Shown here piece after piece: positions 30,481 through 41,211 of a stretch of 64,000 nt of DNA. The stretch lies in the NCBI RefSeq assembly GCF_003790525.1, contig NZ_CP033635.1, one strand, 5' to 3'. Source of the stretch: Escherichia coli (GTDB lineage: Bacteria; Pseudomonadota; Gammaproteobacteria; Enterobacterales; Enterobacteriaceae). A model generated the notes under the pieces. It saw only the letters and a list, made by a program, of their open reading frames with translations, had not been told where the DNA came from and did no database searches. The first letter of the stretch is position 1. Every line of letters starts with the position of its first letter. Both the position numbers and the translations under genes were made by a program.

Positions 30481-30785
30481 TACTACCTGCGCTAGCGCAG
30501 GCCAGAAGAGGCGCGTTGCCCAAGTAACGGTGTTGGAGGAGCCAGTCCTGTGATAACACCTGAGGGGGTGCATCGCCGAGGTGATTGAACGGCTGGCCAC
30601 GTTCATCATCGGCTACAGGGGCTGAATCCCCTGGGTTGTCACCAGAAGCGTTCGCAGTCGGGCGTTTCGCAAGTGGTGGAGCACTTCTGGGTGAAAATAG
30701 TAGCGAAGTATCGCTCTGCGCCCACCCGTCTTCCGCTCTTCCCTTGTGCCAAGGCTGAAAATGGATCCCCTGACACGAGGTAGTT
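30481..30785 (+). ncRNA. lysC 5' leader containing a lysine riboswitch (L-box)
   Basis: About 300-nt leader between a TTGACA/TATAAA-like promoter (about 30445-30476) and the lysC ATG; contains conserved L-box strings AGAGGCGC, GGAGGA, CCGAGGUGAUUGAAC. Confidence 0.75.
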
Positions 30786-32387: not shown

Positions 32388-32660
32388 ATGGCACTCCCCC
32401 GTATTACCCAAAAAGAGATGACTGAACGCGAGCAGCGTGAACTTAAAACACTGCTGGATCGGGCGCGGATTGCGCATGGTCGCGTACTGACCAACTCCGA
32501 AACCAACAGCATTAAGAAAGAGTACATCGATAAATTAATGGTCGAGCGTGAGGCTGAAGCGAAAAAAGCCCGCCAGTTAAAGAAAAAGCAGGCTTATAAA
32601 CCGGATCCTGAGGCGTCATTTAGCTGGTCAGCAAATACGTCGACGCGCGGCAGGCGCTGA
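32388..32660 (+). CDS. yjbD: small conserved protein YjbD (DUF3811)
   Basis: 90 aa; MALPRITQKEMTEREQRELKTLLDRARIAHG. Confidence 0.85.
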   Translation: MALPRITQKEMTEREQRELKTLLDRARIAHGRVLTNSETNSIKKEYIDKLMVEREAEAKKARQLKKKQAYKPDPEASFSWSANTSTRGRR

Positions 32661-33533
32661 TTAACGTCCCTTCTTTTTTCGCCCCGGCGAGGTAAAACGC
32701 TTACCGTTGGACGCCGGGCGACCGCCTTTTTCCGCCGTTTTTTCCATCTTGACGACTGGACGTTTGATGCCTACCGTTTTCGGCTTGGCCTTCGCTTTAG
32801 GTTTTGCCTCGGAAGAGGAATTTTCGATGAGCTTAAAGAGGTCGATTAACTCATCGTCGGTTAAATCGCGCCACTCACCCAGCGGAATGCCGCTTAAACT
32901 GACGTTCATAATGCGCGTACGTTCCAGCTTTTTCACTTCGTAACCAAAGTGCTCGCACATGCGACGGATCTGACGGTTCAGCCCCTGCACCAGGGTAATG
33001 CGGAAGACAAACGGCGCTTCTTTTTTGACTTTGCACTTTTTCGTCACCGTCCCGAGGATCGGTACTCCCGCCCCCATACCACGAATAAATTCATCGGTAA
33101 TCGGTTTATCAACCGTCACCAGATACTCTTTCTCATGATCGTTACCCGCACGGAGGATCTTATTCACCAGATCGCCGTGATTGGTGAGGAAAATCAGCCC
33201 CTGGGAATCTTTATCCAGGCGGCCAATCGGGAACACGCGTTTGCTGTGGTTAACGAAATCGACAATGTTATCGCGCTCGCCATCTTCGGTGGTGCTGACA
33301 ATACCGACGGGCTTGTTCAGGGCGATAAGTACCAAATCTTCGGCTTCCCGAGGCTCAATCAACTGACCGTTTACTTTCACAACGTCGCCGGGTTTCACCT
33401 GATCGCCAATGGTGGCTCGCTTGCCATTAAGGAACACATTGCCTTGCTCGATATAGCGATCCGCTTCGCGGCGTGAGCAAATTCCGCTTTCGCTGATGTA
33501 TTTATTTAAACGGACTGATGAGTCGGGCAGCAT
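32661..33533 (-). CDS. rluF: 23S rRNA pseudouridine synthase F
   Basis: 290 aa with S4 domain and RsuA-family catalytic region ([10 protein letters not shown]); Lys-rich C-terminal tail. Confidence 0.93.
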
Positions 33534-33880
33534 AAATTCTCCTGTAAAACGCGGAATATACCGTACCTCTTAGCGGGGAAAAACAGGGTTATGCGGCAAC
33601 GTCGAAATTAAATGTGATCTGCCACGCCTTTTATCACAAAAGTGTCTCCGGAAGTACGATGCAAATTCGCCTGGCAAAATAAGGATAATCAACATATTAC
33701 GAATCGCTGCACACCTGTGCTGATGACTACTACGCAGAGAAACAAATGTGCAAGAGAAAGCGCTATTTCTCCCCATGCAAAGAGTGAAAAATCGCTTTGA
33801 AAGGCCATCATGATGGGGTTATATCAGATCAAGCGGTGAGAAAGCGTATTTGCACAAATGTGCAGAACCAGGAGGCGGCA

Positions 33881-34828
33881 ATGGAAAACAGTGACGATAT
33901 CCGTTTGATTGTGAAGATTGCCCAACTCTATTACGAACAGGATATGACGCAGGCGCAAATCGCGCGCGAACTGGGTATTTACCGCACCACCATCAGCCGC
34001 TTGCTTAAACGAGGCCGCGATCAGGGAATTGTCACCATCGCCATCAACTATGACTACAACGAAAATCTCTGGCTGGAGCAGCAACTGAAGCAAAAGTTTG
34101 GCCTGAAAGACGTTGTGGTGGTGTCGGGAAATGATGAGGATGAAGAGACTCAACTGGCGATGATGGGGTTACACGGCGCGCAACTGCTGGATCGCTTGCT
34201 GGAACCTGGCGATATTGTCGGTTTTTCCTGGGGCCGCGCGGTGAGCGCACTGGTTGAAAACTTGCCGCAGGCGGGGCAATCGCGGCAGTTAATTTGCGTG
34301 CCGATTATTGGCGGCCCGTCCGGTAAACTCGAAAGCCGCTATCACGTAAACACATTAACCTACAGCGCGGCAGCGAAGCTGAAAGGGGAATCGCATCTCG
34401 CGGATTTTCCGGCTCTGCTGGATAACCCATTAATTCGTAATGGGATCATGCAGTCTCAGCACTTTAAAACCATCTCTGCCTACTGGGATAATCTGGATGT
34501 CGCCCTGGTGGGAATTGGCTCACCGGCCATTCGCGACGGCGCTAACTGGCATGCGTTTTATGGTGGTGAAGAGAGTGACGACCTGAATGCCCGCCAGGTT
34601 GCTGGCGATATTTGCTCGCGCTTTTTTGATATTCACGGCGCAATGGTTGAAACGAATATGAGCGAAAAAACACTCTCTATCGAAATGAATAAATTAAAGC
34701 AGGCACGGTATTCCATTGGCATTGCCATGAGCGAAGAAAAATACAGCGGAATTGTTGGTGCACTGCGTGGAAAATATATTAATTGTCTGGTAACGAATAG
34801 CAGCACAGCTGAACTATTACTGAAATAA
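33881..34828 (+). CDS. sorC: sorbose operon transcriptional regulator (SorC family)
   Basis: Track ORF trimmed to MENSDDIRLIVKIAQLYYEQDMTQAQIARELGIYRTTISRLL (HTH) preceded by RBS aggagg; 315 aa; sugar-phosphate-binding C-terminal domain. Confidence 0.8.
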   Translation: MENSDDIRLIVKIAQLYYEQDMTQAQIARELGIYRTTISRLLKRGRDQGIVTIAINYDYNENLWLEQQLKQKFGLKDVVVVSGNDEDEETQLAMMGLHGAQLLDRLLEPGDIVGFSWGRAVSALVENLPQAGQSRQLICVPIIGGPSGKLESRYHVNTLTYSAAAKLKGESHLADFPALLDNPLIRNGIMQSQHFKTISAYWDNLDVALVGIGSPAIRDGANWHAFYGGEESDDLNARQVAGDICSRFFDIHGAMVETNMSEKTLSIEMNKLKQARYSIGIAMSEEKYSGIVGALRGKYINCLVTNSSTAELLLK

Positions 34829-34897
34829 AAATCTTCCCGATGTTTACCGTAATAAAAATTACGGCGGGTCCCTATTATCTAAAATCAGGAGTCTGTT

Positions 34898-35704
34898 ATG
34901 CAAACGTGGTTAAATTTGCAGGATAAAATCATTATTGTCACCGGCGGCGCATCCGGTATTGGTCTGGCGATTGTGGATGAATTATTAGCACAAGGCGCGA
35001 ATGTACAGATGGTCGATATTCACGGTGGCGATGGTCAATATGAAAACCATAAAGGTTATCAGTTCTGGCCGACCGATATTTCCAGCGCCAAAGAGGTAAA
35101 TCATACGGTAGCAGAAATTATCCAGCGTTTTGGTCGCATCGACGGTCTGGTCAATAACGCCGGGGTCAATTTCCCGCGTCTGCTGGTCGATGAGAAAGCG
35201 CCTGCCGGGCAGTATGAACTCAACGAAGCGGCATTCGAAAAAATGGTCAATATCAACCAGAAAGGCGTTTTTCTGATGTCGCAGGCGGTGGCGCGACAGA
35301 TGGTCAAACAACATGATGGCGTGATTGTGAATGTTTCCTCAGAAAGTGGGCTGGAAGGCTCAGAAGGCCAAAGCTGTTACGCCGCGACCAAAGCCGCGCT
35401 CAATAGCTTCACGCGCTCCTGGTCGAAAGAGCTGGGTAAGCACGGTATCCGTGTGGTCGGTATCGCGCCGGGGATTCTGGAAAAAACAGGACTGCGTACG
35501 CCGGAATATGAAGAAGCGCTGGCGTGGACGCGCAATATCACCGTCGAGCAGCTGCGTGAAGGCTATACCAAAAACGCCATTCCTATTGGGCGCGCCGGAA
35601 GATTAGCAGAAGTGGCTGATTTTGTTTGTTATCTGCTGTCTGAACGCGCCAGCTATATCACCGGAGTAACCACTAACATTGCGGGCGGCAAAACGCGCGG
35701 CTAA
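34898..35704 (+). CDS. sorD: D-glucitol-6-phosphate dehydrogenase (short-chain dehydrogenase/reductase)
   Basis: 268 aa; TGGASGIG Rossmann motif and YxxxK (YAATK) catalytic motif. Confidence 0.8.
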   Translation: MQTWLNLQDKIIIVTGGASGIGLAIVDELLAQGANVQMVDIHGGDGQYENHKGYQFWPTDISSAKEVNHTVAEIIQRFGRIDGLVNNAGVNFPRLLVDEKAPAGQYELNEAAFEKMVNINQKGVFLMSQAVARQMVKQHDGVIVNVSSESGLEGSEGQSCYAATKAALNSFTRSWSKELGKHGIRVVGIAPGILEKTGLRTPEYEEALAWTRNITVEQLREGYTKNAIPIGRAGRLAEVADFVCYLLSERASYITGVTTNIAGGKTRG

Positions 35705-35713
35705 GGAGGCTTT

Positions 35714-36121
35714 ATGGTCAATGCCATTTTTTGCGCCCACGGCAAATTAGCCTGCGCCATGCTGGAATCGGTTCAGATGGTGTACGGCGATGCCAGGGTC
35801 GAGGCCGTTGAATTTGTGCCCGGCGAGAACGCCGGAGACATTGTGGCAAAGCTGGAGAAGTTAGTGAGCATTCACAATCATGACGAGTGGCTAATCGCCG
35901 TGGATTTACAGTGCGGCAGCCCGTGGAATGCGGCAGCGATGCTTGCGATGCGCAATCCTCGTCTGCGGGTAATCAGCGGCCTTTCTCTGCCGCTGGCGCT
36001 CGAACTGGTTGATAACCAGGACAGCATGAATATTGATGAACTGTGTGAACACCTGACGCAAATCGCAAAGCAAATCTGCGTCGTCTGGAGACAGGTGGCA
36101 ACAGCGGAGGAGGATTTCTGA
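35714..36121 (+). CDS. sorF: PTS sorbose-specific EIIA component (mannose family)
   Basis: 135 aa; its stop overlaps the sorB start (TGATG). Confidence 0.8.
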   Translation: MVNAIFCAHGKLACAMLESVQMVYGDARVEAVEFVPGENAGDIVAKLEKLVSIHNHDEWLIAVDLQCGSPWNAAAMLAMRNPRLRVISGLSLPLALELVDNQDSMNIDELCEHLTQIAKQICVVWRQVATAEEDF

Positions 36122-36615
36122 TGAACATTACGCTCGCCCGCATTGATGACCGCCTGATCCACGGCCAGGTCACTACCGTCTGGTCTAAGGTGGCTAACGC
36201 CCAACGCATTATTATCTGCAATGACGAAGTTTATAACGATGAAGTTCGCCGGACATTATTGCGTCAGGCTGCGCCACCGGGAATGAAGGTTAACGTGGTC
36301 AATATTGAAAAAGCCGTCGCGGTTTATCACAACCCGCAATATCAGGACGAAACCGTTTTTTATCTTTTCACTCGCCCACAAGATGCCTTAGCAATGGTTC
36401 GCCAGGGGGTAAAAATAGGTACCCTGAATATTGGCGGTATGGCCTGGCGTCCTGGTAAGAAACAGTTAACCAAAGCAGTTTCATTAGATGACGATGATAT
36501 TAACGCATTTCATGAGTTAAATAATCTTGGCGTCATACTGGATTTACGCGTCGTAGCGTCAGATCCCTCAATCAATATTATCGACAAAATAAACGAACAG
36601 TTAATCGCAAATTAA
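36121..36615 (+). CDS. sorB: PTS sorbose-specific EIIB component
   Basis: 164 aa; MNITLARIDDRLIHGQV (conserved His of mannose-family IIB). Confidence 0.8.
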   Translation: MNITLARIDDRLIHGQVTTVWSKVANAQRIIICNDEVYNDEVRRTLLRQAAPPGMKVNVVNIEKAVAVYHNPQYQDETVFYLFTRPQDALAMVRQGVKIGTLNIGGMAWRPGKKQLTKAVSLDDDDINAFHELNNLGVILDLRVVASDPSINIIDKINEQLIAN

Positions 36616-36680
36616 ATAATAGCGCCTGTGTACATATGCTTTAACAGGCAGGGATGACGACACTTAAAAGGTGACAAATC

Positions 36681-37478
36681 ATGGAAATAAGTACCCTACA
36701 AATTATTGCTATATTTCTTTTTTCCTGTATTGCCGGAATGGGCAGCGTGCTGGATGAATTTCAGACTCATCGTCCGTTAATTGCCTGTACGGTGATTGGT
36801 TTAATTCTCGGTGATTTAAAAACCGGAATTATGCTCGGTGGTACGCTGGAATTGATAGCTCTCGGCTGGATGAACGTCGGCGCGGCGCAATCTCCGGATT
36901 CTGCACTCGCCAGCATAATCTCCGCCATTCTGGTTATCGTTGGTCAGCAAAGCATCGCCACCGGAATCGCCATCGCGTTGCCTGTGGCTGCGGCAGGCCA
37001 GGTGCTGACGGTGTTTGCCCGTACCATCACAGTAGTGTTCCAGCACGCGGCGGATAAAGCAGCAGAAGAGGCGCGGTTTCGCACTCTCGATATTCTGCAT
37101 GTCTCCGCGCTTGGCGTGCAGGCGCTGCGCGTTGCTATTCCGGCACTGATTGTCTCGCTGTTCGTCAGCGCCGATATGGTGAGCAATATGCTGAGCGCCA
37201 TTCCCGAATTTGTGACCCGTGGACTGCAGATTGCTGGCGGTTTTATCGTGGTGGTCGGTTACGCCATGGTGCTTCGCATGATGGGCGTGAAATATTTGAT
37301 GCCTTTCTTTTTCCTCGGTTTCCTCGCAGGTGGCTACCTCGATCTCAGTCTGCTGGCGTTCGGTGGCGTCGGCGTGATCATGGCCCTGCTCTACATCCAG
37401 TTAAATCCACAGTGGCGTAAAGCTGAACCACATCCCCAGACCACCACTATCACCGCCCTTGACCAACTTGATGATTAA
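36681..37478 (+). CDS. sorA: PTS sorbose-specific EIIC component
   Basis: 265-aa polytopic membrane protein. Confidence 0.8.
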   Translation: MEISTLQIIAIFLFSCIAGMGSVLDEFQTHRPLIACTVIGLILGDLKTGIMLGGTLELIALGWMNVGAAQSPDSALASIISAILVIVGQQSIATGIAIALPVAAAGQVLTVFARTITVVFQHAADKAAEEARFRTLDILHVSALGVQALRVAIPALIVSLFVSADMVSNMLSAIPEFVTRGLQIAGGFIVVVGYAMVLRMMGVKYLMPFFFLGFLAGGYLDLSLLAFGGVGVIMALLYIQLNPQWRKAEPHPQTTTITALDQLDD

Positions 37479-37488
37479 CGGAGCCATC

Positions 37489-38313
37489 ATGGAACAGAGA
37501 AAAATTACACGCAGCGATCTGGTGAGCATGTTTCTGCGCTCCAACCTGCAACAGGCATCCTTTAACTTTGAACGTATTCACGGGCTGGGTTTTTGCTACG
37601 ACATGATCCCCGCCATCAAACGACTTTACCCATTAAAAGAGGATCAGGTTGCGGCGCTCAGGCGACACCTAGTGTTCTTCAATACCACGCCAGCCGTATG
37701 TGGCCCGGTCATCGGCGTCACTGCCGCCATGGAAGAGGCGCGAGCCAACGGCGCGGAAATTGATGACGGTACCATTAACGGCATCAAAGTCGGCCTGATG
37801 GGACCGTTGGCAGGTGTTGGCGATCCACTGGTCTGGGGAACGCTGCGCCCGATTACCGCCGCGCTCGGCGCATCTCTGGCACTTTCGGGCAACATTCTCG
37901 GCCCCCTGCTGTTCTTCTTTATTTTCAATGCAGTACGTCTGGCAATGAAATGGTATGGGCTGCAACTGGGCTTTCGTAAAGGGGTGAATATCGTCAGCGA
38001 TATGGGCGGTAATTTGCTGCAAAAACTGACCGAAGGCGCGTCGATTCTCGGGCTGTTTGTAATGGGCGTACTGGTGACCAAATGGACATCGATCAACGTG
38101 CCGTTAGTGGTTTCACAAACGCCTGCCGCCGATGGTGCCACCGTCACTATGACCGTACAGAACATTCTCGACCAGCTTTGCCCTGGATTGCTGGCGCTCG
38201 GTTTGACGCTGCTGATGGTACGTCTGCTCAACAAAAAAATTAACCCGGTATGGCTGATTTTCGCCCTGTTTGGTTTAGGGATTATCGGTAATGCGCTGGG
38301 CTTCCTGTCCTGA
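37489..38313 (+). CDS. sorM: PTS sorbose-specific EIID component
   Basis: Trimmed to MEQRKITRSDLVSMFLRSNLQQASFNFER (274 aa), preceded by RBS ggag. Confidence 0.8.
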   Translation: MEQRKITRSDLVSMFLRSNLQQASFNFERIHGLGFCYDMIPAIKRLYPLKEDQVAALRRHLVFFNTTPAVCGPVIGVTAAMEEARANGAEIDDGTINGIKVGLMGPLAGVGDPLVWGTLRPITAALGASLALSGNILGPLLFFFIFNAVRLAMKWYGLQLGFRKGVNIVSDMGGNLLQKLTEGASILGLFVMGVLVTKWTSINVPLVVSQTPAADGATVTMTVQNILDQLCPGLLALGLTLLMVRLLNKKINPVWLIFALFGLGIIGNALGFLS

Positions 38314-38364
38314 TTCTTCGCCCCGGCACGACTGCCGGGGTCATCGCTCAACATGAGGTGGTTT

Positions 38365-39594
38365 ATGAAAACAACAGCTCTGCGTCTTTATGGCAAACGT
38401 GACCTGCGTCTGGAAACCTTTGACCTTCCTGAAATGCAGGAGGATGAAATCCTCGCGACGGTGGTCACTGACAGCCTGTGCCTCTCTTCCTGGAAAGAGG
38501 CCAATCTGGGGGAAAACCATAAAAAAGTACCCGACGATGTGGCGACCAATCCCATCATCATCGGCCACGAATTTTGCGGCGATATTCTGGCCGTGGGTAA
38601 AAAGTGGCAGCACAAATTCCAGCCGGGTCAGCGTTATGTGATTCAGGCCAACCTGCAACTCCCCGACCGCCCGGACTGCCCCGGCTACTCCTTCCCGTGG
38701 GTAGGCGGCGAAGCGACGCATGTGGTTATTCCCAACGAGGTCATGGAACAAGATTGCCTGCTGGCATACGACGGCGAAACCTATTTTGAAGGCTCGCTGG
38801 TTGAACCGCTTTCCTGCGTGATTGGCGCGTTCAACGCCAACTATCATCTTCAGGAAGGTAGTTATAACCACACGATGGGGATTCGCCCGCAAGGGCGCAC
38901 GCTGATCCTCGGCGGCACCGGACCAATGGGACTGTTGGCGATTGATTATGCGCTGCATGGACCCGTTAACCCGTCGCTGCTCGTTATTACCGATACCGAC
39001 AACGACAAATTGAGTTATGCGCGCAAGCACTATCCATCAGAACCGCAAACACTGATTCATTATCTCAATGCCACCGATGCAGCATTTGATACGTTAATGG
39101 CGCTGAGTGGCGGTCACGGCTTCGATGATATTTTCGTCTTTGTGCCTAATGAAGGACTGGTGACTCTCGCCTCTTCCTTGCTGGCGACAGATGGTTGCCT
39201 GAATTTCTTCGCCGGACCGCAGGATAAACATTTCAGCGCGCCAATTAATTTCTACGATGTGCATTATGCATTTACCCACTACGTGGGCACGTCAGGCGGC
39301 AATACCGACGACATGCGCGCGGCGGTCAAACTGATCGAAGAGAAAAAAGTGCAGGCCGCAAAAGTGGTAACACATATTCTTGGGCTGAATGCCGCGGGCG
39401 AAACCACGCTTGAATTGCCTGCCGTCGGCGGCGGGAAAAAACTGGTGTATACCGGGAAATATCTGCCGCTGACATCACTCACGCAGATTCAGGATGAAGA
39501 ACTGGCGGCGATTCTGGCGCGTCATCAGGGAGTCTGGTCCGGCGAGGCGGAGCAGTACCTGCTCGCCCATGCAGAGGCGATTTCCCATGATTAA
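38365..39594 (+). CDS. sorE: L-sorbose-1-phosphate reductase (zinc-type alcohol dehydrogenase family)
   Basis: Trimmed to MKTTALRLYGKRDLRLETF (409 aa); MDR zinc-ligand region GHEFCGDIL. Confidence 0.75.
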   Translation: MKTTALRLYGKRDLRLETFDLPEMQEDEILATVVTDSLCLSSWKEANLGENHKKVPDDVATNPIIIGHEFCGDILAVGKKWQHKFQPGQRYVIQANLQLPDRPDCPGYSFPWVGGEATHVVIPNEVMEQDCLLAYDGETYFEGSLVEPLSCVIGAFNANYHLQEGSYNHTMGIRPQGRTLILGGTGPMGLLAIDYALHGPVNPSLLVITDTDNDKLSYARKHYPSEPQTLIHYLNATDAAFDTLMALSGGHGFDDIFVFVPNEGLVTLASSLLATDGCLNFFAGPQDKHFSAPINFYDVHYAFTHYVGTSGGNTDDMRAAVKLIEEKKVQAAKVVTHILGLNAAGETTLELPAVGGGKKLVYTGKYLPLTSLTQIQDEELAAILARHQGVWSGEAEQYLLAHAEAISHD

Positions 39595-40399
39595 TCGCGA
39601 TACTCAACTCTGCATGTCGCTGGCCGGCCGCCCCGGTAACTTCGGCACGCGTTTTCACAATTATCTTTATGAAAAGCTGGGGCTGAATTTCATCTATAAA
39701 GCGTTCACCACCCAGGATATTGCAGCGGCGGTGAAAGGGATTCGCGCGTTGGGTATTCGCGGTTGCGCTGTGTCGATGCCGTTTAAAGAAAGCTGCATGC
39801 CTTTTCTCGACGCGATCGATCCGTCGGCGAAGGTCATTGATTCCGTGAATACCATCGTGAATGACGACGGCAGGCTGACCGGGTTTAACACCGACTATAT
39901 CGCGGTGAAAAGCCTGATTACCCACCACCAGCTCAATACCACCACGCGAGTGATGATTCGCGGCAGTGGCGGCATGGGCAAAGCGGTGATTGCCGCCTTT
40001 CGCGACGCGGGGTTTACGGATGTTATCATTGCCGCCCGCAACCGCGAGAGCGGCCCGGCGCTGGCGAAGCAGTATGGGTTTCAGTGGCAACCGCAGCCGG
40101 AAGGCATCGCCTGCGACATTCTGGTCAACGTGACGCCCGTTGGCATGAGCGGCGGTAAAGAGAGCCATGAGCTGGCCTTCAGCGAAGCGATGGTCTCAAC
40201 GGCAAGCGTCGTTTTTGATGTCGTGGCCTTGCCGCCGGAAACGCCGCTCATTCGCCTGGCGCAACGGCTTGATAAGCAGACGATTAGCGGTGCGGAGGTG
40301 ATTGCTTTACAGGCCGTCGAGCAGTTCGCAATGTATACCGGCGTACGGCCTGATGCGCAACTGATTGCTGAGGCGGCACAATTTGCACGAGAAGGATAA
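39587..40399 (+). CDS. shikimate/quinate 5-dehydrogenase-like protein (AroE/YdiB family), eighth gene of the sor cluster
   Basis: 270 aa; start overlaps the sorE stop (ATGATTAA); AroE-like motifs: N-terminal substrate region, SMPFKE (catalytic Lys), NTD (catalytic Asp), Gly-rich Rossmann GSGGMGKA. Confidence 0.7.
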   Translation: MINRDTQLCMSLAGRPGNFGTRFHNYLYEKLGLNFIYKAFTTQDIAAAVKGIRALGIRGCAVSMPFKESCMPFLDAIDPSAKVIDSVNTIVNDDGRLTGFNTDYIAVKSLITHHQLNTTTRVMIRGSGGMGKAVIAAFRDAGFTDVIIAARNRESGPALAKQYGFQWQPQPEGIACDILVNVTPVGMSGGKESHELAFSEAMVSTASVVFDVVALPPETPLIRLAQRLDKQTISGAEVIALQAVEQFAMYTGVRPDAQLIAEAAQFAREG

Positions 40400-40521
40400 G
40401 AAACATCAGCGCCTTGTTTGCCACGCCAGAAGCAATGCGCAACATCGTGAGCCATGTCAGTAAGCGGTTAAAATCACAGTGGTAGCATGGCTCCCGTGAT
40501 TTCTTACTAACCGGAGAAGTA

Positions 40522-41211
40522 ATGGAACTGCTTTTATTGAGTAACTCGACGCTGCCGGGTAAAGCCTGGCTGGAACATGCGCTGCCGCTGATTGCTGAAC
40601 AGTTGCAGGGTCGCCGTTCAGCGGTATTTATTCCTTTCGCTGGCGTAACGCAGACCTGGGATGATTACACAGCGAAAACGGCTGCGGTTCTCGCTCCGCT
40701 GGGTGTTTCTGTCACCGGTATTCATAGCGTTGTCGATCCCGTTGCCGCGATTGAAAATGCTGAGATCGTGATTGTCGGCGGCGGGAATACTTTCCAGTTG
40801 CTGAAACAGTGCCGCGAGCGCGGGCTGCTGGCACCAATTACTGACGTGGTTAAACGTGGCGCGCTGTATATTGGCTGGAGCGCAGGCGCTAACCTTGCTT
40901 GCCCAACCATTCGTACCACCAACGATATGCCGATTGTCGATCCGCAAGGTTTCGATGCGCTGAATCTGTTCCCGTTGCAAATCAACCCGCACTTCACCAA
41001 CGCGCTGCCGGAAGGCCATAAAGGTGAAACGCGTGAGCAGCGTATTCGCGAACTGCTGGTCGTCGCGCCAGAACTCACAATTATTGGTCTACCGGAAGGT
41101 AACTGGATCACGGTGAGTAAAGGTCACGCTACGCTGGGTGGCCCGAACACCACTTATGTGTTTAAGGCTGGTGAAGAAGCGGTTCCGCTGGAAGCGGGTC
41201 ACCGTTTTTAA
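40522..41211 (+). CDS. pepE: peptidase E (alpha-aspartyl dipeptidase)
   Basis: 229 aa; [28 protein letters not shown]; S51-family catalytic Ser region GWSAGAN. Confidence 0.93.

Follow-up and report, generated by a model that had tools for sequence, protein, structure and literature searches.

The segment between rluF and pepE in the 64,000-nucleotide stretch of Escherichia coli DNA analysed here (contig NZ_CP033635.1; hereafter the window) raises the question of whether its eight genes, sorCDFBAME followed by sdhL, form a metabolic island that was inserted between two core genes, as a preliminary description made from the sequence had proposed, or an old part of the chromosome that other strains have lost. 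The second answer is favoured: positions 33534-40521 are read, with a probability of roughly 0.88, as the chromosomal L-sorbose operon of strain SMS-3-5 in its full eight-gene form, ancestral and vertically inherited, lost in K-12, and carrying sdhL as an accessory gene. Conserved synteny at a single site in no fewer than ten genera, divergence like that of the flanking genes and the lack of a mobility signature argue for vertical descent and for loss in K-12, and the parsimonious reading would be that the sor block is an ancestral enterobacterial locus.

A profile scan with an alignment of SdhL was carried out on one genome per species and the best 80 loci were examined; the Sor, RluF, PepE and YjbB proteins were then placed in each SdhL locus returned. 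sorE lay directly upstream of sdhL in 29 of the best 80 loci, and wherever the contigs reached the flanks a full sorCDFBAME was found between rluF and pepE or yjbB. The syntenic taxa comprise Pseudocitrobacter, E. albertii, E. whittamii, two further Escherichia lineages, many Citrobacter species, the Klebsiella oxytoca group, K. indica, Raoultella, two Enterobacter isolates and Entomohabitans; a Serratia sp. contig carries the eight genes and ends before either flank, and a K. variicola genome shows the same arrangement, including the 8-nt overlap of sorE and sdhL, which is conserved across at least ten genera. E. fergusonii has seven sor genes at the same site, with neither a remnant of sdhL nor pepE; an opposite-strand DUF2058 gene lies there between sorE and yjbB. 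The spacer between rluF and sorC is likewise conserved block by block across genera.

Synonymous divergence (dS) from K. michiganensis was 1.40 for sorE, 1.39 for rluF and 1.23 for pepE (saturated values), and from E. whittamii 0.27, 0.42 and 0.26, respectively; in each genus pair the sor genes and the flanking rluF and pepE have diverged to a similar degree at synonymous sites, and the ratio of non-synonymous to synonymous divergence (dN/dS) was 0.02-0.16 throughout. None of the marks of a mobile island (integrase or transposase, attachment site, repeats, deviating composition) was found: no integrase or transposase is annotated in RefSeq, no tRNA gene lies within 25 kb of the locus, no meaningful direct or inverted repeats flank it, the lysC riboswitch is the sole Rfam match in the window, and the GC content ranges from 0.42 to 0.59 per 500 bp without a step at the borders. 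On this point the preliminary description, which had noted no integrase, transposase, tRNA or direct repeats, was borne out by annotation, tRNA, Rfam and repeat searches.

The SMS-3-5 record (NC_010498.1) is 100% identical to the window over 32661-41211, and its RefSeq annotation was used for the gene calls, which combine the listing of open reading frames (ORFs), this annotation and NCBIfam and Pfam scans, all in agreement. The features are as follows.

32661-33533, minus strand: rluF, left flanking core gene, divergent from the operon (NF007784 RluF equivalog, 607 bits; RefSeq).
33534-33880, plus strand: rluF-sorC regulatory region (16-sequence multi-genus spacer alignment).
33881-34828, plus strand: sorC, SorC/DeoR-type sugar-binding regulator (PF04198 Sugar-bind, 271 bits, with an N-terminal helix-turn-helix; RefSeq name).
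34898-35704, plus strand: sorD, D-glucitol (sorbitol)-6-phosphate dehydrogenase of the short-chain dehydrogenase/reductase type (NF004817, 501 bits against a cutoff of 304).
35714-36121, plus strand: sorF, phosphotransferase system (PTS) EIIA, mannose family (TIGR00824, 146 bits against a cutoff of 98).
36121-36615, plus strand: sorB, PTS EIIB (TIGR00854 'pts-sorbose', 223 bits against a cutoff of 164).
36681-37478, plus strand: sorA, PTS EIIC (TIGR00822 EII-Sor, 422 bits against a cutoff of 340).
37489-38313, plus strand: sorM, PTS EIID (TIGR00828, 473 bits against a cutoff of 293).
38365-39594, plus strand: sorE, L-sorbose-1-phosphate reductase with the zinc alcohol dehydrogenase/medium-chain dehydrogenase fold (RefSeq name; PF08240, ADH_N, and PF00107, ADH_zinc_N).
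39587-40399, plus strand: sdhL, SdhL-class oxidoreductase of the shikimate dehydrogenase family (NF009202, 467 bits against a cutoff of 306).
40400-40521, plus strand: sdhL-pepE spacer, of which 40426-40521 is in common with K-12.
40522-41211, plus strand: pepE, right flanking core gene (NF003642 PepE, 357 bits).

By ORFs and RefSeq the gene order is lysC, yjbD, rluF (minus strand), the eight plus-strand genes, pepE, yjbB and metH, a setting which matches that of the sor type (lysC-rluF, sor, (pepE)-yjbB-metH-iclR). The eight co-directional genes, with the families first assigned to them, were recovered by ORFs, RefSeq and NCBIfam/Pfam, and the overlaps given for them, of 1 nt between the sorF stop and the sorB start and of 8 nt between the sorE stop and the sdhL start, are exact. 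The PTS is encoded in the order F-B-A-M as four separate mannose-family polypeptides, all scoring above curated cutoffs. The solved structures nearest to SorE are sorbitol dehydrogenases and a ketose reductase, and its homologues carry the name L-sorbose 1-phosphate reductase in many genera.

The seven-gene operon of CFT073 (c4981-c4987), whose products are 82-97% similar to K. pneumoniae SorC-SorE, conferred growth on L-sorbose when cloned into DH5alpha, and SMS-3-5 was included in the operon tree of the same study (PMC2831201). Sequence type (ST) 648 grows on sorbose and induces the operon, sorbose-dependent induction was also observed in ST131, and an ST131 sorE deletion mutant was without its parent's L-sorbose-dependent growth gain (PMC12817954, 2025). 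The growth data for CFT073, ST131 and ST648, together with the above-cutoff families, carry the sorbose identity of the locus; the original assignment to sorbose is upheld by the SorD score above the sorbitol-6-phosphate dehydrogenase cutoff, the name of SorE and the growth conferred by orthologous operons. The locus is already known and well studied in non-K-12 E. coli, so that its confirmation here adds nothing new, and the earlier remark that it had been described before and is not novel agrees with the coverage of the sor operon in PMC2831201 and PMC12817954. The only under-studied part of the locus is the rarely retained sdhL.

By the mechanism established for the orthologues of Klebsiella and E. 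coli, the PTS formed by SorF, SorB, SorA and SorM takes up L-sorbose and phosphorylates it to L-sorbose-1-phosphate, which SorE reduces to D-glucitol-6-phosphate, and SorD oxidises the latter to fructose-6-phosphate, with SorC as both a positive and a negative regulator of the operon. SorC is described as a dual regulator and the classical sor operon as one of seven genes in the early work of Sprenger & Lengeler (1984/1987) and Wöhrl, Wehmeier & Lengeler (1990), as far as it is relayed in PMC2831201 and PMC12817954.

Upstream of sorC, the 16-sequence alignment brings out TAAATGTGATCT...TCACAAAAGTG (33609-33644), which is conserved across genera and resembles a CRP half-site, and further cross-genus blocks at 33660-33670 (TGCAAATTCGC), 33709-33720 (GCACACCTGTGC) and 33743-33753 (CAAATGTGCAA). 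A promoter-like pair, TTGAAA (33797-33802) and TATATC (33820-33825) with 17 nt between them, lies within a block that hardly varies between genera, and the palindrome TGCACAAATGTGCA (33851-33864) stands just 5' of the sorC ribosome-binding site. Three of the seven matches to this palindrome in the window (allowing up to three mismatches) cluster within 33708-33864; the whole-window count is not above chance, and a function is suggested solely by the clustering and the cross-genus conservation. Transcription would start some 50 bp before sorC, at the conserved promoter-like site, on either side of which conserved TGCACA/TGTGCA palindromes are candidate SorC operators, and the transcript would span all eight genes, with sdhL translationally coupled to sorE. 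No convincing intrinsic terminator was found after sdhL by a generic promoter/terminator scan. Candidate operators and promoter in this position would be consistent with the dual control by SorC published by Wöhrl et al. (1990), in the form in which later papers summarise it.

The distribution of the operon was counted in 5,426 complete E. coli genomes. It occupies the rluF-pepE site in 2,865 of them and essentially all others have an empty junction; one sor-negative genome, NZ_CP147009.1, carries an IS1 element in the rluF-pepE spacer. By phylogroup, the operon has been reported in more than 86% of genomes except in A (9.6%) and B1 (12.1%) (PMC12817954). The interior of sdhL is far rarer, being present in 176 of the 5,426 genomes, SMS-3-5 and IAI39 included (JNEC-KY178 at 91.5% identity and the other 175 at 99% or above), and the eight genes do not form the uniform unit as which they had first been presented, the eighth being intact in only 176 of the 2,865 sor-positive complete genomes. 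An identical sdhL deletion junction was found in 2,681 genomes, about 94% of sor-positive E. coli. The seven-gene allele, as seen in O157, keeps the first 58 nt and the last 54 nt of sdhL around a 701-bp gap that corresponds to 39645-40345 of the window, and codon 7 of the remnant is changed from CAA to TAA. Since both ends of sdhL are kept around the gap, the ancestor of the seven-gene allele had the full gene. sdhL is thus the original eighth gene rather than an insertion specific to ST648, and one old deletion explains nearly all other sor-positive E. coli. O157, JNEC-KY178, E. whittamii and two further Escherichia lineages have, after the sdhL stop and before pepE, a repetitive extragenic palindromic (REP)/bacterial interspersed mosaic element (BIME)-like element of roughly 145-155 bp, which SMS-3-5 lacks (at about 40415 in the window). 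On this evidence, the whole block would have been lost in K-12 and most phylogroup A and B1 strains and sdhL alone in most other E. coli, through one shared internal deletion of 701 bp, while phylogroup-F strains such as SMS-3-5 keep an intact, divergent sdhL haplotype.

In K-12 MG1655, rluF and pepE are 211 bp apart with no gene between them; their adjacency in K-12 and the absence of the operon there, which the preliminary description had stated, were thereby confirmed in a direct comparison. The segment that differs from K-12 spans 33569-40425 (6,857 bp), where K-12 has 80 bp of other sequence: nt 1-35 of the K-12 spacer match 33534-33568 and nt 116-211 match 40426-40521, and the difference between SMS-3-5 and K-12 is a replacement, not a clean insertion. 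Within the 80 bp, nt 36-65 have a positional homologue in the stretch next to rluF of the Citrobacter and Kluyvera spacers (z of about 5; none of 300 shuffles reached the score), and no positional homologue of the remaining 50 nt was found among the spacers compared.

Several points weigh against the favoured reading of the locus. The middle 80 nt of the K-12 spacer (nt 36-115) have no match in sor-positive E. coli, and because removal of the operon from the sor-positive sequence would not yield this spacer, recombinational allele replacement may have contributed to the empty allele. Through sorE as far as approximately 39400, SMS-3-5 shares about 98% identity with O157 and KY178; from there to approximately 40520 its identity to all other Escherichia alleles is only 90-92%, recovering in pepE. 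The break near 39400 looks like a recombination-type breakpoint and the phylogroup-F sdhL segment like a distinct haplotype, which may have been anciently retained or re-imported by homologous recombination; the 54-58 nt retained at either end of the O157 remnant are too short and too decayed to tell whether it derives from the SMS-3-5 or the KY178 allele of sdhL. As dS against Citrobacter and Klebsiella exceeds 1 and is saturated, vertical inheritance rests mainly on synteny. The TTGAAA-17-TATATC site was not called by the generic promoter scan, and the promoter and operator roles that we infer for the conserved blocks are candidate roles drawn from conservation footprints. Finally, no sorbose phenotype for SMS-3-5 itself was found in the literature.

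One competing explanation concerns sdhL, which might be a lineage-specific insertion (in ST648 or phylogroup F) beside an original seven-gene operon, as is implied by PMC12817954, where ST648 is the only one of the sequence types studied to have sdhL. This is unlikely. The divergent SMS-3-5 haplotype with its breakpoint near 39400 is compatible with re-import, but the retention of both sdhL ends in the seven-gene allele already refutes the explanation in its strong form, in at least ten genera an intact sdhL comes after sorE and overlaps it by the same 8 nt, and JNEC-KY178 carries a second, different intact E. coli allele.

The place of sdhL in the operon as an original yet accessory gene can be examined from both sides. 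The gene is under purifying selection (dN/dS 0.05-0.16), and in ST648 supplied with L-sorbose the log2 fold change of sdhL was +6.01 for RNA and +6.77 for protein, next to RNA values of 5.65-5.67 for sorA, sorF and sorB (PMC12817954 supplement), an induction of sdhL by sorbose of about 64-fold. The conserved 8-nt overlap, the purifying selection and the co-induction together identify sdhL as a member of the operon. It is dispensable for growth on sorbose and not needed for the pathway, as the CFT073 seven-gene operon suffices in DH5alpha and ST131 grows on sorbose without sdhL. SdhL would thus be an accessory oxidoreductase of the NADP(H) type, co-expressed with the sor pathway and not required for it.

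The gene is also found apart from the pathway. Six Kluyvera species have rluF, a sorC-like gene (70% identity), 20 bp, sdhL and pepE, the sor catabolic and transport genes being gone, and keep the sor promoter block and palindrome; two Pluralibacter genomes have rluF, about 220 bp, sdhL and yjbB, with no sor genes. In both genera a short stretch 5' of the sdhL ATG resembles the end of sorE (GAGG...ATG), which would be the ribosome-binding region of sdhL. These reduced loci look like independent deletions that spared sdhL, the mirror image of events in E. coli. Outside the Enterobacteriaceae, sdhL of Pasteurellaceae commonly stands between yibN-secB-gpsA-cysE and udp, away from any sugar genes, and its neighbours in Pseudomonas, Lautropia, Neisseria, Rahnella and Ewingella are unrelated, so that the context of sdhL gave no clue to the substrate in the genera compared. 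Coverage by tblastn was partial in some Escherichia representatives, for sorE in two and for sorD in one, with sdhL intact, which suggests pseudogenisation of sor genes with sdhL kept. The gap between sdhL and pepE in Citrobacter and Klebsiella (11 loci) is a variable spot that holds 0.2-9 kb of unrelated cargo, including a CcdB toxin homologue and a Gp49/HTH_37 (HigBA-like) pair.

What SdhL does was approached through its closest relatives. It matches Haemophilus influenzae HI0607 (PDB ID: 1NPY) full-length (E-value 3e-112 over residues 1-268) and is an orthologue of this protein, with which the SdhL class was founded. In vitro, HI0607 oxidises shikimate weakly, and no report of a physiological substrate of SdhL or HI0607 was found in the literature searched. 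Invariant in SdhL alignments are K67, D103, G126 and G128-G129, that is, the catalytic dyad and the Rossmann glycines, and Lys67, Asp103, Asn88, Gln242 and the Rossmann glycines are also conserved between SdhL and AroE. The numbering of the AroE sequence used for this comparison reproduces the published residue numbers. Tyr215 of AroE aligns to an invariant Ala214 in SdhL and the Ser14/Ser16 loop (HSKSP) to an invariant NFGTR (GNFGTR), so that SdhL has neither the loop nor the tyrosine of the AroE type. These serines and this tyrosine are contacts to the shikimate carboxylate, and the shikimate carboxylate site of SdhL appears remodelled.

In PMC12817954 SdhL is taken for an extra shikimate dehydrogenase that boosts aromatic amino-acid synthesis on sorbose. 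The fold, the conserved Lys67/Asp103, Asn88 and Gln242 and the activity of HI0607 would fit, as would the co-upregulation of aroL and trp genes with sorbose (PMC12817954); nevertheless this role is quite improbable given the replacement of Tyr215 by the invariant Ala214 and of the Ser14/Ser16 loop by the invariant GNFGTR, the presence of both AroE and YdiB in E. coli, the location of sdhL in a sugar operon, and the reduction of 5-ketofructose by other members of the fold (PDB ID: 7COK; PMC7954740). Of the latter, the Gluconobacter 5-ketofructose reductase (KFR; PDB ID: 7COK) has the same fold as SdhL with family-level similarity only (E-value 3e-16), and the Tatumella KFR is a 5-ketofructose reductase of the same fold (PMC7954740).

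A sugar-related role for SdhL is suggested by ancestral membership of the sor operon, coupling to sorE, the approximately 64-fold induction by sorbose and the remodelled carboxylate site. We therefore put forward, tentatively and with low confidence, that SdhL, an orphan class since its structure of 2005, may be no shikimate enzyme but an accessory NADP(H)-dependent oxidoreductase for a sorbose-related ketohexose, hexitol or sugar phosphate; as a candidate reaction, 5-keto-D-fructose (or its phosphate) could be reduced into the sorbose/fructose pool. SdhL is nevertheless separable from the pathway: Kluyvera and Pluralibacter keep its gene behind the sor promoter region after losing the sor catabolic and transport genes, and most E. 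coli have lost it by deletion.

Returning to the operon as a whole, a horizontally acquired metabolic islet inserted between rluF and pepE, with K-12 as the original empty site, is very unlikely. The same block occupies the same site in Pseudocitrobacter, Citrobacter, Klebsiella, Raoultella, Enterobacter, E. albertii, E. whittamii and E. fergusonii, its divergence resembles that of the flanking genes, target-site duplications, tRNA genes and integrases are lacking and the GC content is unremarkable. Such an islet would account for the 211-bp spacing in K-12 and for the strain-variable occurrence of the operon (2,865 of 5,426 genomes), and the 80 bp of the K-12 spacer that lack a counterpart in sor-positive E. 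coli also speak for it; nt 36-65 of that spacer are, however, homologous to the rluF-proximal sor regulatory spacer of other genera. From the old, strain-variable, inserted islet of the preliminary description, the strain variability and the lack of signs of mobility are retained, and the insertion is given up in view of the same site in at least ten genera. That the PTS and dehydrogenases serve another sugar (mannose, fructoselysine or N-acetylgalactosamine) instead of L-sorbose is highly improbable, for although the EII subunits match NCBIfam models of a generic kind (mannose/fructose/sorbose families), the equivalogs specific for ManXYZ and Aga, checked for a better match to a different PTS sugar, score below their cutoffs, SorD passes the sorbitol-6-phosphate dehydrogenase model, SorE is named as L-sorbose-1-phosphate reductase, and growth on sorbose has been shown experimentally for orthologous operons.

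Outside the operon, a lysine riboswitch at 30498-30694 upstream of lysC (Rfam RF00168, 99.5 bits) is known and annotated in RefSeq. yjbD and rluF are convergent and abut without a spacer at 32660/32661 in SMS-3-5; in K-12 their spacer is 132 bp long and contains CCCCTCACCCTAACCC...GGGGCGAGGGGAC, a palindromic, GC-rich repeat that resembles repeat elements of the boxC type.

That E. coli strains differ in the sor operon, a fitness trait which is enriched in extraintestinal and enterohaemorrhagic lineages and which K-12 lacks, is already known. Two modest corrections are offered here, namely that the operon is probably an ancestral enterobacterial locus lost by K-12-like strains, not an acquired island, and that sdhL, taken to be specific to ST648, belonged to it from the start as the eighth gene; the added value lies in this evolutionary reading (an eight-gene ancestor, K-12-like loss and a shared sdhL deletion) and in a handle on the orphan SdhL class. 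The shared deletion provides a natural presence/absence polymorphism, together with a defined inducing condition, for probing that class.

Compared with known systems, genes one to seven agree in order and family with sorCDFBAME of K. pneumoniae, which lies in the same chromosomal neighbourhood near metH and iclR; in contrast to the classical seven-gene sor operon of Klebsiella, there is here and in the K. variicola genome an eighth gene, sdhL, whose start overlaps sorE. The sor operons of CFT073, ST131 and O157 occupy the same rluF-pepE locus and share 95-99% DNA identity with SMS-3-5 over sorC-sorE, but carry the remnant of the 701-bp sdhL deletion and a BIME-like element where SMS-3-5 has an intact sdhL and no BIME. 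Members of the SdhL class in Haemophilus and other Pasteurellaceae are 65-66% identical and have the catalytic Lys/Asp dyad in common; their gene stands outside a sugar context, whereas the enterobacterial copy stands inside a sugar operon and is co-induced with it. The KFRs, finally, provide a precedent within the fold for a ketohexose one redox step from L-sorbose and D-fructose.

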